A DNA stretch of 64,000 nucleotides from Candidatus Saccharimonadota bacterium (GTDB lineage: Bacteria; Patescibacteriota; Saccharimonadia; Saccharimonadales; Saccharimonadaceae). This document shows, in pieces, positions 41 to 64,000 of the stretch. Numbering within the stretch: position 1 is the stretch's first letter; each line of letters starts with the position of its first letter. The DNA is taken from assembly GCA_037138815.1 (NCBI GenBank), contig JBAXHQ010000001.1, positions 35,407-99,406 of the forward strand. The letters are read 5' to 3'. The notes beneath the pieces were generated by a model that did no database searches, had not been told where the DNA came from, and saw only the letters and a list, made by a program, of their open reading frames with translations. The translations under genes and the position numbers were made by a program.

Positions 41-775
41 ATGACATCTAATGTCGATATCAAAGCCCTGTTTGAAGCAGGCGTACATTTTGGTCACAAG
101 ACCAGCCATTGGAACCCTAAAATGGCACAATATATTCACAGTAAACGCCAGGAAAGCCATATTATTGATTTGGCAAAAACTGTCGAAGGCCTAAACGTAG
201 CATTGCCATTCTTGACCAGTGTAGTTGCTAGTGGCAAACAAGTTCTATTTGTTGGCACTAAAAAGCACACCAAAGACATCATTCGTGAAGCTGCCCAGGC
301 AGTCAATCAGCCATACGTTACTGAACGTTGGTTGGGTGGCACTTTGACTAATGTCACTACTGTTACTAAACAGATTAAAAAATTAAAAGACCTAGAAAAA
401 CGCATGGTATCAGGTGATCTAGAAAAACGCTATTCTAAACTAGAAGTTCAACGTTTCCAGGAAGAAATTGATGATCTAAATAATAAATACCTAGGTATCA
501 AAGACCTAAACGGTAAACCAGGTGCTGTATTTATCATTGATGTTATTGGTGATATGAATGCTATCAAAGAGGCTAAAACCCTTAACGTTCCAGTTGTTGC
601 GGTTGTTGATACTAACGCTGATCCAACTTTGGTTGATTATGTCATTCCTGGTAACGATGATGCTATCAAGGGTGTCCAATTACTACTAGATTACGTAAAG
701 ACTGCCATTATCAATGGCGCAGCAGGTGCTAGTAAAGTAACTGATAATATTAAGGCTGATACAAAGGAGAAATAA
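41..775 (+). CDS. rpsB: 30S ribosomal protein S2
   Basis: 244-aa ORF with the S2 signature GVHFGHKTSHWNPKM...HIIDL. It is followed by tsf, as in the conserved rpsB-tsf pair. Confidence 0.95.
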   Translation: MTSNVDIKALFEAGVHFGHKTSHWNPKMAQYIHSKRQESHIIDLAKTVEGLNVALPFLTSVVASGKQVLFVGTKKHTKDIIREAAQAVNQPYVTERWLGGTLTNVTTVTKQIKKLKDLEKRMVSGDLEKRYSKLEVQRFQEEIDDLNNKYLGIKDLNGKPGAVFIIDVIGDMNAIKEAKTLNVPVVAVVDTNADPTLVDYVIPGNDDAIKGVQLLLDYVKTAIINGAAGASKVTDNIKADTKEK

Positions 776-62456: not shown

Positions 62457-62882
62457 TTAATGGTTGGGCGTATTTAATTTGTAAAGTTTTTCGGACAAGT
62501 CGTATAATTTTTGAGTGCCGTTTTCGAGTTGGTAATAATGTCGTATATAAAAAAGTTCAGTGACTAATAATATAGCTGCAATAATCAAAATTAAAATATT
62601 CAAAAGTGTGTAGCTGTATGCTACTAGAAACAAACTCGCTACTGACAACAATAATAGACAAGCGAAGAAAAGAGTCACTATCAGATGGATTAGCCGTTCA
62701 TGCTGGAAATCACGTACAACTTGGCAATGATATCTATATAGTTTGTTAATGCGTTTCTGTACTGATTCACTATCCTGATTAGTTCCGGTGGTTTTTAATT
62801 CGTTCTCGAACTTTTCAATTTCGGCTCTTACAAATTTATCATGAGCTAATAATTTTTTATCCATGAGGTTATTATATACCAC
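62457..62882 (-). CDS. Hypothetical membrane protein (2 TM)
   Basis: 141 aa with an N-terminal helical soluble part followed by two hydrophobic helices. I recognised no family. Confidence 0.5.
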   Translation of the reverse strand: MVYNNLMDKKLLAHDKFVRAEIEKFENELKTTGTNQDSESVQKRINKLYRYHCQVVRDFQHERLIHLIVTLFFACLLLLSVASLFLVAYSYTLLNILILIIAAILLVTELFYIRHYYQLENGTQKLYDLSEKLYKLNTPNH

Positions 62883-62922: not shown

Positions 62923-63585
62923 TTACAGCTGAGCTACTATTTTAGCTGAATCCATGTTTATCACCTCGGCGGTTTTTGGTCTGTTTTTTTGAAATTCCTC
63001 GGCTTTTACGAAGCGATCCTTTATATAAGCTAATTGGTTTTCTTCGTATTTATTAAAATCAAGACTGCCGATAGTATAGTCACCAGTATTTTCTCCTCGA
63101 TCTGCACCACCTTTTAGCTTGTTAAGGGTGGTTTTTAATAGCTTGCCATCATCTGGAGCCTCTAATAGATTGAAAACGGATGAAATATCAACGTTACCTG
63201 ATAATATATCGTCATCTGAGCGTATATCACCGCTAATCCTTGATAAATAGACAGTTCCCTCTTTGCATAGAATAATGATGCTGGTCGGGATAGCTTCGCT
63301 AATATCCTCTTTTAGGATTGAATAAGTCCTATTTTTTGAATCGACATCTCGGAGGAAAGCATTTGGATATTTTTTGGACAGTAAATTCATTACCTCCAAA
63401 TTCTGCCTTTGAGTTTCAGTTAATTCAGTTTTAACCTCTAATTCCGGAGTAGTATTATCGACTACTAGTTCAAGGTGCCTCTCGGTTGGGTCGGGTGCTG
63501 GAGGTAACTCGTTCGATAAATTTGGGTTAATACTAGATTCTGGGTTTGGCTGTGGCTGTTGAAATTCGTGAGGTTGATTTTCCAT
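62923..63585 (-). CDS. Hypothetical protein
   Basis: 220 aa with a P/Q/N-rich N-terminus. I recognised no family. Confidence 0.5.
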   Translation of the reverse strand: MENQPHEFQQPQPNPESSINPNLSNELPPAPDPTERHLELVVDNTTPELEVKTELTETQRQNLEVMNLLSKKYPNAFLRDVDSKNRTYSILKEDISEAIPTSIIILCKEGTVYLSRISGDIRSDDDILSGNVDISSVFNLLEAPDDGKLLKTTLNKLKGGADRGENTGDYTIGSLDFNKYEENQLAYIKDRFVKAEEFQKNRPKTAEVINMDSAKIVAQL

Positions 63586-63666
63586 TTTTTATCCTTTTTT
63601 GTTTTGGATTATGTATTGATTTTAGTTTAGTCGTAAGTATGAAGGAATGTCAAATGTTGATTATAA

Positions 63667-63704
63667 TACCAAAATAAAATACCCATCACTAGGATGAGTA
63701 TTTT
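63667..63704 (-). terminator. Intrinsic terminator after tRNA-Glu
   Basis: The - strand reads AAATACTCATC-CTAGT-GATGGGTATTT (one mismatch) followed by TATTTTGG. Confidence 0.55.
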
Positions 63705-63708
63705 ATTC

Positions 63709-63783
63709 TGGTGATCGTACCGGGAATTGAACCCGGATTGCCAGGATGAGAACCTGGTGTCCTAACCTTTAGACGATACGACC
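63709..63783 (-). tRNA. tRNA-Glu (anticodon CUC), CCA encoded
   Basis: Hand-folded cloverleaf: acceptor GGTCGTA/TACGATC, D-arm GTCT-AAAGGTTA-GGAC, anticodon arm CCAGG-TTCTCAT-CCTGG, variable CAAT, T-arm CCGGG-TTCAATT-CCCGG, discriminator A, then CCA. Confidence 0.9.
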
Positions 63784-63926
63784 ATAGGTATATTGTACTT
63801 TGTTTGGGGTTTAATTCCTTGTAGGGAATTGGTCACCTGTCATTTTCTTTGAAAATGCAGTCGACCCCGCCTCAGTCGGTGACGTTCGTCATCCGGCTTC
63901 CGGCCTTGCGACCCGCCGACGTGGCG
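63784..63926 (-). ncRNA. GC-rich, helix-dense spacer RNA between the two tRNA-Glu units (unclassified)
   Basis: It is clearly more GC-rich than neighbouring intergenic DNA. At least five hairpins and one enclosing helix are readable by eye (see findings). Confidence 0.35.
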
Positions 63927-63985
63927 GGTCTCACCCGGATTGCCAGGATGAGAACCTGGTGTCCTAACCTTTAGACGATGAGACC
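63927..63985 (-). pseudogene. tRNA-Glu(CUC)-like unit lacking T-loop and 3' T-stem
   Basis: A 47-nt perfect match to the intact tRNA (63933-63979 = 63731-63777). It has its own fully paired acceptor stem GGTCTCA/TGAGACC, exactly 12 nt of the T-arm are missing, and there is no CCA. Confidence 0.6.
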
Positions 63986-64000
63986 ATTACCTCGCGAATT

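Follow-up and report, generated by a model that had tools for sequence, protein, structure and literature searches.

Positions 63784-63985 on the minus strand of the 64-kb stretch of Saccharibacteria DNA analysed here (the window) hold a truncated copy of a tRNA-Glu gene, which lies 5' of the functional gene and is disrupted by a structured element termed E. Element E belongs to a conserved, covarying, orientation-specific and loop-targeted family. The interpretation favoured here, with a probability of roughly 0.6, is that 63784-63985 represents a dead upstream tRNA-Glu copy interrupted by E, and that E is a mobile or recombining structured element. An initial annotation of the same region, made from the sequence alone, had proposed a T-arm-less tRNA-like unit with a compensated acceptor stem, fused to a structured RNA.

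Anatomy of the Interrupted tRNA-Glu Copy

The functional tRNA-Glu(CUC) at 63709-63783(-), with an encoded CCA and the acceptor stem GGTCGTA/TACGATC, is the only tRNA reported by ARAGORN in the whole window and matches the Rfam tRNA model at 62 bits, in agreement with the initial annotation. A second, truncated match to this model lies at 63926-63985(-), scoring 33.9 bits against a gathering threshold of 29, with 13 positions of the T arm skipped by the model. The two tRNA-Glu copies form a direct repeat of 55 nt with 2 mismatches at a spacing of 202 nt, which includes the perfectly shared 47-nt block from which a truncated tRNA-like unit had been recognized correctly. Both mismatches fall at positions 5-6 of the acceptor 5' strand, which reads GGTCTCA in the upstream unit and GGTCGTA in the intact gene. 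The upstream tRNA sequence is normal from position 1 to G53, and this relic of an older tRNA-Glu copy (63934-63985(-)) retains the acceptor 5' strand, D arm, anticodon arm (CUC), variable loop, and the T-stem 5' strand CCGGG. It is followed by the GC-rich element E, 103 nt in length (63831-63933(-)), in place of T54-T55. After E the tRNA sequence picks up again as (C)AATTCCC; the rest of the T loop and the T-stem 3' strand, AATTCCC (tRNA positions 57-63, at 63824-63830(-)), match ...TTCAATTCCCGG of the intact gene, and C56 may correspond to the final C of E. The continuation RANYCC... is likewise found behind E in other T-loop copies. Since the T loop resumes directly after E, nothing was lost by microhomology deletion, and the earlier statement that exactly the T loop and the 3' T stem are absent does not hold, their remainder lying right behind E at 63830-63824. 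The earlier suggestion of a pseudogene beside a foreign remnant came close to the truth, except that the supposed 12-nt deletion is really a 103-nt insertion replacing 2-3 nt of the T loop.

Behind this remainder the T arm of the intact gene recurs in inverted form as TACAAGGAATTAAACCC (63807-63823(-)), which a repeat search pairs with 63718-63734 over 17 nt at 82% complementarity (14/17). The AATTCC-CTACAA-GGAATT hairpin that had been proposed as a helix of the spacer is thus the T-loop relic followed by this inverted copy, and analogous inverted copies flank E at other loci. An AT-rich spacer (63784-63806(-)) then leads to the intact tRNA-Glu. As read from the sequence, it carries a -10-like TACAAT at 63797-63792, 8 nt before the tRNA, which may act as its promoter; TATAAT, TACAAT, or TAACAAT boxes are likewise found 5' of the intact tRNA at other loci of the window type. 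The description of the spacer as GC-rich and structured is borne out, with a GC content of 0.61 and a folding z-score of -5.3 for the 202-nt stretch.

Structure and Covariation of Element E

Homologues of E were collected in two samples. A scan of one genome per species with a 31-nt tRNA core gave 67 loci, nearly all labelled Saccharibacteria and for the most part ordinary tRNA-Glu genes, and a scan of metagenomes with GCAAGGCCGGANNCNGGATGA gave at least 119 loci, of which about half are true copies of E. In the pooled samples at least 155 E 5' modules were located, and at least 77 distinct full copies of the long form, from other Saccharibacteria genomes and metagenomes, were extracted with computed boundaries; all counts of E given here are among the matches listed. 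An alignment of 47 copies (A2, with the window copy first) was used for the consensus structure, obtained with RNAalifold, and for a covariance model (R1), which matches the window copy at 111 bits (E-value 2e-19) as its sole hit within the 64-kb window.

The consensus consists of three consecutive hairpins, in the window H1 (63933-63907), H2 (63904-63869), and H3 (63866-63831). H1 includes the pairs U1-A28 and G2-C27, H2 is built from GCC/GGC, AGCCGG/CCGACU with a conserved C-A mismatch, and UGACG/CGUCA, and H3, long and irregular, is closed by GUCG/UGAC. Across the 47 copies and 35 pairs, standard pairing is found in 97.9% of cells as compared to 83.2% in shuffled alignments. Double changes affect 26 of the 35 pairs (14.8 expected) and 210 cells covary (43 expected), and none of 500 shuffles reached any of the observed covariation values. 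In controls in which the pairing partners were slid, 29-51% of cells were paired. Covariation thus exceeds both the shuffled and the slid controls, identifying E as a conserved structured RNA element of a new family. The junction strands GCAAGGCCGGA and GAGGCGGG are invariant across the 47 copies. Because the G-U pair at columns 80:110 is retained in 40 of the 47, the structure belongs to the tRNA-sense strand, as RNA or as sense single-stranded DNA. The minimum free energy fold of the window copy is the consensus fold (-49 kcal/mol, z = -4.6 over 103 nt). In addition, the sequences flanking E can always pair with one another, as a T, D, or anticodon stem, as another hairpin, or through an inverted 'splint' copy.

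Some of the spacer helices proposed from the single sequence are upheld by covariation among the 47 homologues, namely GACCCGCC/GGCGGGTC, GACG-AA-CGTC, and the long TCGACTG...CAGGTGA hairpin. The others are not: in place of a CCGG-AAG-CCGG hairpin, covariation favours GCC/GGC and AGCCGG/CCGACU, and the GGGGT...ACCCC helix lies outside the conserved fold. No known family was found for the spacer core in a search of 63600-64000 against Rfam 15, either at the gathering threshold or at an E-value of up to 10, and six other E loci gave only tRNA and noise in Rfam, with no family corresponding to E. Full-text literature searches, literal motif sequences included, did not find a published description of E.

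Such a structure could also serve the host. E may be a useful, domesticated small structured RNA riding on tRNA genes, expressed from the tRNA promoter or by read-through transcription and with ends produced by RNase P/Z cleavage of the neighbouring tRNA, in which case the flanking tRNA fragments would merely provide a closing helix and an expression context. The three covarying hairpins and the invariant junction strands argue for this, as do the flanks that can always pair, the position of the truncated unit behind a conserved strong promoter, and the placement of E in the sense of an intact tRNA some 20-100 nt away. The proposal of a tRNA-linked structured noncoding RNA has fared well in so far as the spacer core is conserved, covarying, linked to tRNA genes, and without an Rfam family. 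A host-useful RNA is nonetheless rather unlikely, and less likely than a mobile element. E is multi-copy, is found in many tRNA contexts, and varies in presence between close relatives (L052 as compared to the window, L006 as compared to L065); nested and truncated copies, such as one at L055 reduced to H3 alone, are typical of a selfish repeat; and no partner protein was found by clustering the open reading frames (ORFs) within 3 kb of about 99 E loci.

Copies, Insertion Sites, and Locus Layouts

E forms a multi-copy family in Saccharibacteria, with members of about 88-105 nt that start with UGAR and end with GUGAC. The nucleotide preceding E is G in 130 of 155 copies and the one before that is G in 104 of 155; insertion is directly after GG, on the 5' shoulder of a hairpin loop, and mostly between G53 and T54 of T loops. 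D, anticodon, and variable loops serve as sites too, as do a few hairpins outside tRNA genes. The latter (L101 ~716, L144 ~2462, and L117, reverse complement, ~1367) are apical loops of intergenic hairpins (e.g., ...GGGTGGCGTCCGGCGGG|E|..ACCCAC), and Rfam recognizes no RNA gene at these three sites. The neighbouring tRNAs comprise 12 identities (Glu, Leu, Ser, Gln, Gly, Ile, Lys, Met, Pro, Arg, Val, and His). The orientation of E is always that of the host tRNA, with 12 of 12 model hits in the 67 genome loci on the tRNA strand, and an intact tRNA on the same strand lies nearby in about 55 of 77 copies. Up to three insertions are found in a single tRNA-Glu-like gene (L019), D-loop insertions with both flanks continuing are seen in L012, L016, and L153, and in L012, L047, and L070 tRNA 5' fragments are arranged in tandem with an element behind each. 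Variant forms include a short form of about 88 nt, a nested form with a second H1-H2 module after GGCGGG, and copies reduced to the last hairpin. The minimal insertion, 3' of tRNA-Glu in L055, is H3 alone, TGTCGCGGGACATGACC, between ...ACGGA and GATTCCC, and is either a decay product or a primordial E.

Two layouts are common. In type A, that of the window (22 close cases), E lies 22-72 nt 5' of an intact tRNA of the same sense. A promoter and a tRNA 5' fragment lead into E, behind which come 6-12 nt of continuing target sequence, an inverted copy of the intact target that extends across the site of insertion, a -10-like box, and finally the intact tRNA. In type B (about 33 cases) E lies 64-101 nt 3' of the intact tRNA. 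Here the intact tRNA and its terminator come first, and right behind the T run an inverted and diverged copy of the tRNA 3' part starts with TGG. Next are the T-stem 5' strand in direct orientation, E, the tRNA 3' part through CCA, and a second terminator. The tRNA 3' part behind E is often 20/20 identical to that of the intact gene. The inverted copy of type B is most simply explained as an extension of the terminator palindrome by a fold-back template switch.

In 20 of 60 loci at the species level, extra pieces of tRNA-Glu are found no more than 500 nt from the intact gene. Loci 3' of tRNA-Glu with the type-B order of terminator, inverted T-arm copy, direct T arm, and tRNA 3' end, but with unrelated T-loop inserts of 50-110 nt (after position ~58-60) in place of E, were observed as well (L015, L054, L057/L022, L064, L066, L035/L048, and L072), and redundant 3' fragments seem to accept insertions in their T loop quite generally. 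A second conserved structured element, consisting of a CATATG hairpin ... AAATTTCTCGGAA-[hairpin]-CTTCACTCGAAATTT, is found directly 5' of tRNA-Glu in L012 (~330-460(-)), L016, L068, L070 (6380-6498), and L071, and after GGTCYCAT in L024, L053, and L063. At some loci its insertion point is behind tRNA position 8, and 8 nt of the tRNA (GGTCYCAT) remain as a relic. Many contigs of metagenome-assembled genomes start or stop in or beside tRNA-Glu (L008, L012, L013, L016, L019, L024, L031, L032, L039, L056, and others), consistent with assemblies breaking at repeated tRNA fragments and copies of E.

The Acceptor-Stem Pairing of the Truncated Unit

The initial annotation had based its functional T-arm-less tRNA-like unit on an acceptor stem that appeared to have changed on both strands together. 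The supposed 3' acceptor strand, TGAGACC, is instead the conserved 5' end of E (UGAR and the start of H1) and thus belongs to the insertion. Of 77 copies of E, 45 have TGAGAAC as their first seven nucleotides and 6 have TGAGACC, the latter in Met, Leu, Gln, Val, and Glu contexts. Pairing of the 5' end of E with the acceptor 5' strand of the adjoining fragment was counted in the 26 copies that keep the 5' end of the fragment (the window and 25 others): all seven positions pair in the window, 4-6 of 7 in other tRNA-Glu cases, and 0-3 of 7 with other tRNAs. The intermediate values arise because the conserved TGAGA resembles the tRNA-Glu 3' strand TGAGATC. The acceptor stem is not kept by covariation in homologues. 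In L024, L070, and L012 the tRNA also ends at CCGGG and is followed by TGA, a covarying 8-bp hairpin, and GCAAGGCCGGA, and at these loci the TGAxxxx shows no complementarity to the acceptor 5' strand.

The acceptor stem is GGTCTCA/TGAGATC in most Saccharibacteria loci, and the relic keeps this older 5' strand. The GGTCGTA/TACGATC stem, found in the functional gene of the window, L052, and L068, is derived, and is doubly and internally compensated. The compensated pairs are therefore better read in reverse, the fragment having the typical strand and the functional gene the derived stem, and the complete pairing in the window is probably a coincidence of the ancestral GGTCTCA strand with a common allele of E. 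The reading of the 59-nt unit as a working tRNA-like RNA that lacks a T arm, has its 7-bp acceptor stem under selection, and is joined to a ribozyme or other structured RNA has become highly improbable. Its merits are the 7/7 pairing of GGUCUCA with UGAGACC and an Rfam tRNA score just above gathering; set against these, the 3' strand represents the conserved beginning of E and is taken up by H1, complete pairing is missing from all 25 other comparable copies, the unit is not followed by CCA, and relatives lack it. Nucleotides 1-12 of E (63933-63922; consensus UGAGAACUGCCA), which comprise the 5' strand of H1 and the first part of its loop, weakly resemble the tRNA-Glu acceptor 3' strand with discriminator and CCA (UGAGAUCACCA), and a 3' end of tRNA-Glu that folded back on itself may have been the origin of E.

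The Orthologous Locus and the Gain or Loss of Blocks

The context 5' of the truncated unit is provided by L001, a contig of the same strain that reaches 10 kb past the end of the window. A response-regulator gene ends 42 nt 5' of the unit, and between the two lies a promoter-like TAGACA-17-TACAGT (L001 9557-9585) at normal tRNA distance. In L052, the closest species-level relative, the response-regulator gene, promoter, terminator, and downstream gene are all present, together with a tRNA of the GGTCGTA type, and only GGCCTCAT-TAC, an 8-nt relic of the GGTCYCAT kind, separates promoter from tRNA. In L006, L018, L065, and L067 this conserved promoter leads straight into the intact tRNA. The truncated unit is thus missing from the orthologous locus of all five, and a normal tRNA at this position in relatives is the very observation that the initial annotation had named as contrary to its proposal. 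What sets L065 apart from L006 is the insertion of a complete type-B block at the T loop; gain and loss of the unit between close relatives thus involve the block in its entirety.

Gain and loss of entire blocks is also what would be expected if E were the attachment-site part of small integrative elements. By site-specific or Campbell-type recombination into tRNA genes, blocks consisting of E, relic, promoter, and tRNA 5' part, or of tRNA 3' part, terminator, inverted copy, and E, would restore an intact gene and push the old half aside, and E would mark the junction. In line with this, the unit of gain or loss is the block and not E alone (L065 and L006; the window and L052), and the intact gene of the window has a self-consistent acceptor stem unlike that of the displaced fragment. 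The position of E is the T-loop edge, reportedly a classical integrase crossover region in schemes that sort integration sites within tRNA genes into sublocation classes. Lastly, in L023, L044, and L124 the intact tRNA adjoins a large serine recombinase gene. This explanation is nevertheless improbable. The blocks are only about 200 bp long and contain no recombinase, a recombinase is found at only 4 of about 99 loci, and tRNA sequence on both sides of E places the insertion inside the core rather than in an arm. Furthermore, the junctions do not retain the crossover dinucleotide expected of serine integrases, and RNA-like covariation over the whole length, with G-U pairs, is not expected of protein-binding arms.

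The four recombinases are large serine recombinases (Resolvase with Zn_ribbon_recom), encoded at L023 205-1767(+), L044 233-733(+), L124 5320-6375(-), and L191 3579-5246(-). In L023, L044, and L124 the recombinase frame converges on the intact tRNA and overlaps the antisense of its 3' end, the protein ending in ...VISPGIEPGLPG in L023 and L044. These loci suggest integrative elements that use tRNA genes as attachment sites. Integration of E itself as a mini-circle by a serine integrase was considered and rejected, because the junctions lack a crossover dinucleotide. A partial tRNA copy beside the intact gene, as left by attachment-site remnants, is present at the window locus, and no integrase gene lies within 10 kb in L001 or the window. 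Apart from the serine recombinase, the ORF clusters near E comprise only read-through of E itself and synteny genes (histidine kinase and response regulator). No match to E was found in viral contigs, and none beyond the tRNA part in phage and plasmid collections.

Intron and Ribozyme Tests

Sense-oriented insertions in tRNA loops are reminiscent of archaeal non-canonical introns, and E could be an intervening sequence that is removed from RNA by a protein enzyme or by itself, with the window copy a decayed member of interrupted tRNA genes that once worked. The three insertions in the L019 gene, the D-loop insertions of L012, L016, and L153 with both flanks continuing, and the conserved ends UGAG...GUGAC, which could be processing sites, fit this idea. 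The test made of it was a set of 12,186 deletion constructs at 155 E sites, each running from the element start to a plausible end, with all such ends used and 0-2 T added, and analysed with ARAGORN. Deletions of the size of E gave no junction-spanning tRNA, one doubtful call in L070 excepted; that call aside, junction-spanning tRNAs came only from deletions reaching the downstream intact copy. Since deletion of E rebuilds no tRNA, E is not a working intron. Moreover, the junction has lost 1-3 nt of the loop, one half of the gene, downstream or upstream, is regularly missing, and E is too small for a group I or group II intron. An intervening sequence is improbable.

In the Rfam search of 63600-64000 no group I intron, hammerhead, twister, pistol, hatchet, or hepatitis delta virus (HDV)-like ribozyme was found at an E-value of up to 10, HDV-like folds being hard to detect in this way. 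Hammerhead, k-turn (C/D-box-like), group II/III-like ends (GUGAG...AC with a bulged A), and HDV-like topology, compared by eye only, were rejected for a misfit of core nucleotides or topology or because the exons are unjoined.

Proposed Mechanism and Points Against It

As a non-autonomous mobile or recombining element, E would enter the loops of stable-RNA genes in one orientation. Its insertion would destroy the tRNA, and therefore copies would survive only in redundant, partial gene copies, which could stem from local duplication, fold-back template switching, or the integration of other mobile DNA, with function supplied by the neighbouring intact gene. An RNA composed of the 5' fragment and E may be transcribed from the old tRNA promoter. 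Conservation of the structure over the whole length of E suggests that selection acts on E RNA, or on the sense single strand.

Several observations weigh against a mobile or recombining element. E has neither terminal inverted repeats nor a target-site duplication; as tested against the pattern of a miniature inverted-repeat transposable element (MITE), its ends, UGAG... and ...GUGAC, are not inverted repeats, and its junctions lose 2-3 nt. No recurrent transposase, reverse transcriptase, or endonuclease gene was found within 3 kb of the approximately 99 loci. Recent intragenomic bursts are not apparent, identity being 0.77 within contigs and 0.78 between them, in an underpowered comparison of only 7 pairs. 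The retention of all three hairpins in dead fragments exceeds the need of a purely DNA-level parasite and fits a functional RNA at least as well. Finally, the uniform order of E, target nucleotides, inverted copy, and intact gene hints at a coupled mechanism, and the coupling of E with short inverted copies of its target is the best lead to that mechanism.

A bolder possibility, entertained here only tentatively, is that E represents a new class of RNA-level or single-strand-level mobile element, or of tRNA-linked functional RNA, of the Candidate Phyla Radiation, homing to the GG shoulders of tRNA loops. E together with its closing helix would then form a cloverleaf-like four-way junction, antisense 'splint' copies of the target would possibly guide homing, and a putative ribozyme activity or a trans-acting enzyme would be needed.

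Comparison with Known Systems

Among small dispersed repeats, the Rickettsia palindromic elements, the pneumococcal BOX elements, repetitive extragenic palindromic (REP)/MITE-like repeats, and the GC clusters of yeast mitochondria are, like E, about 100 nt in length, multi-copy, and GC-rich in comparison with the host, and they likewise form hairpins, are noncoding, and vary in presence between relatives. The boxB units of BOX occur as duplicated or nested modules, as do H1-H2 of E, and Rickettsia palindromic elements insert within functional genes too. In contrast to these repeats, E has no terminal inverted repeats, makes no target duplication, keeps a strict orientation, is nearly confined to tRNA loops after GG, and shows RNA-type covariation with conserved junction strands. 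Palindrome-associated transposable elements (PATEs) of the IS200/IS605 group also lack terminal inverted repeats and target duplications, carry hairpins at both ends, keep a fixed orientation to a short target motif, and have their structure on one strand. The hairpins at the two ends of E, H1 and H3, are dissimilar and abut the termini, 2-3 nt of the target are lost, H2 is conserved too, and no transposase, neither TnpA nor TnpB, was found among the ORFs within 3 kb of about 99 loci.

Short sense inserts in D, anticodon, variable, and T loops, sometimes several per gene, are shared with the bulge-helix-bulge introns of archaea, and gene pieces beside GC-rich helices with archaeal split tRNA genes. 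E differs in its bacterial host, in that its removal rebuilds no tRNA, in that the other half of the gene is usually missing, and in having a conserved three-hairpin body of 100 nt in place of the bulge-helix-bulge motif, with no evidence of a splicing endonuclease. Bacterial group I introns in anticodon loops are also structured RNAs within tRNA genes, and the last exon nucleotide of E insertions can likewise be read as U. However, E has half the minimal size of such introns, lacks the P3-P9 core, gives no Intron_gpI hit at an E-value of up to 10, sits for the most part in the T loop instead of the anticodon loop, and has exons that are not contiguous. The tRNA fragments left by integrases (attL/attR) resemble the E units as partial direct copies adjoining an intact gene, in forming arrays, and in the serine recombinases at some loci. 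They differ from the E units, which have a conserved structured insertion exactly in the loop, 5' fragments upstream as commonly as 3' fragments downstream, intervening DNA of only about 80-150 nt, and fold-back inverted copies.

Covariation and the more than 150 copies point to a real family; if it is real, a structured element that had not been catalogued specifically colonizes the tRNA genes of a highly reduced bacterial lineage. It would matter for annotation and assembly, as many Saccharibacteria contigs break exactly at tRNA-Glu and spurious truncated tRNAs appear in the output of tRNA scanners. Tolerance of a gene-killing insertion in a 1-Mb genome whose tRNA genes are single-copy would be explained by the intact copy that always persists alongside, and the E-bearing fragments would parallel, in bacteria, the fragmented and interrupted tRNA genes known from archaea. 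The invariant junction and three covarying helices make E a candidate for a new ribozyme or protein-binding RNA.

Features 3' of the Functional Gene

The functional tRNA-Glu is followed by an intrinsic-terminator-like hairpin and T run (63668-63712(-)), an inverted repeat with 20-nt arms of 90% complementarity and then TTTTATTTT. Further 3' are genes at 62923-63585(-) and 62457-62882(-), encoding proteins of 220 and 141 aa, neither of which has a Pfam match. The 220-aa protein is kept with the locus in L052.

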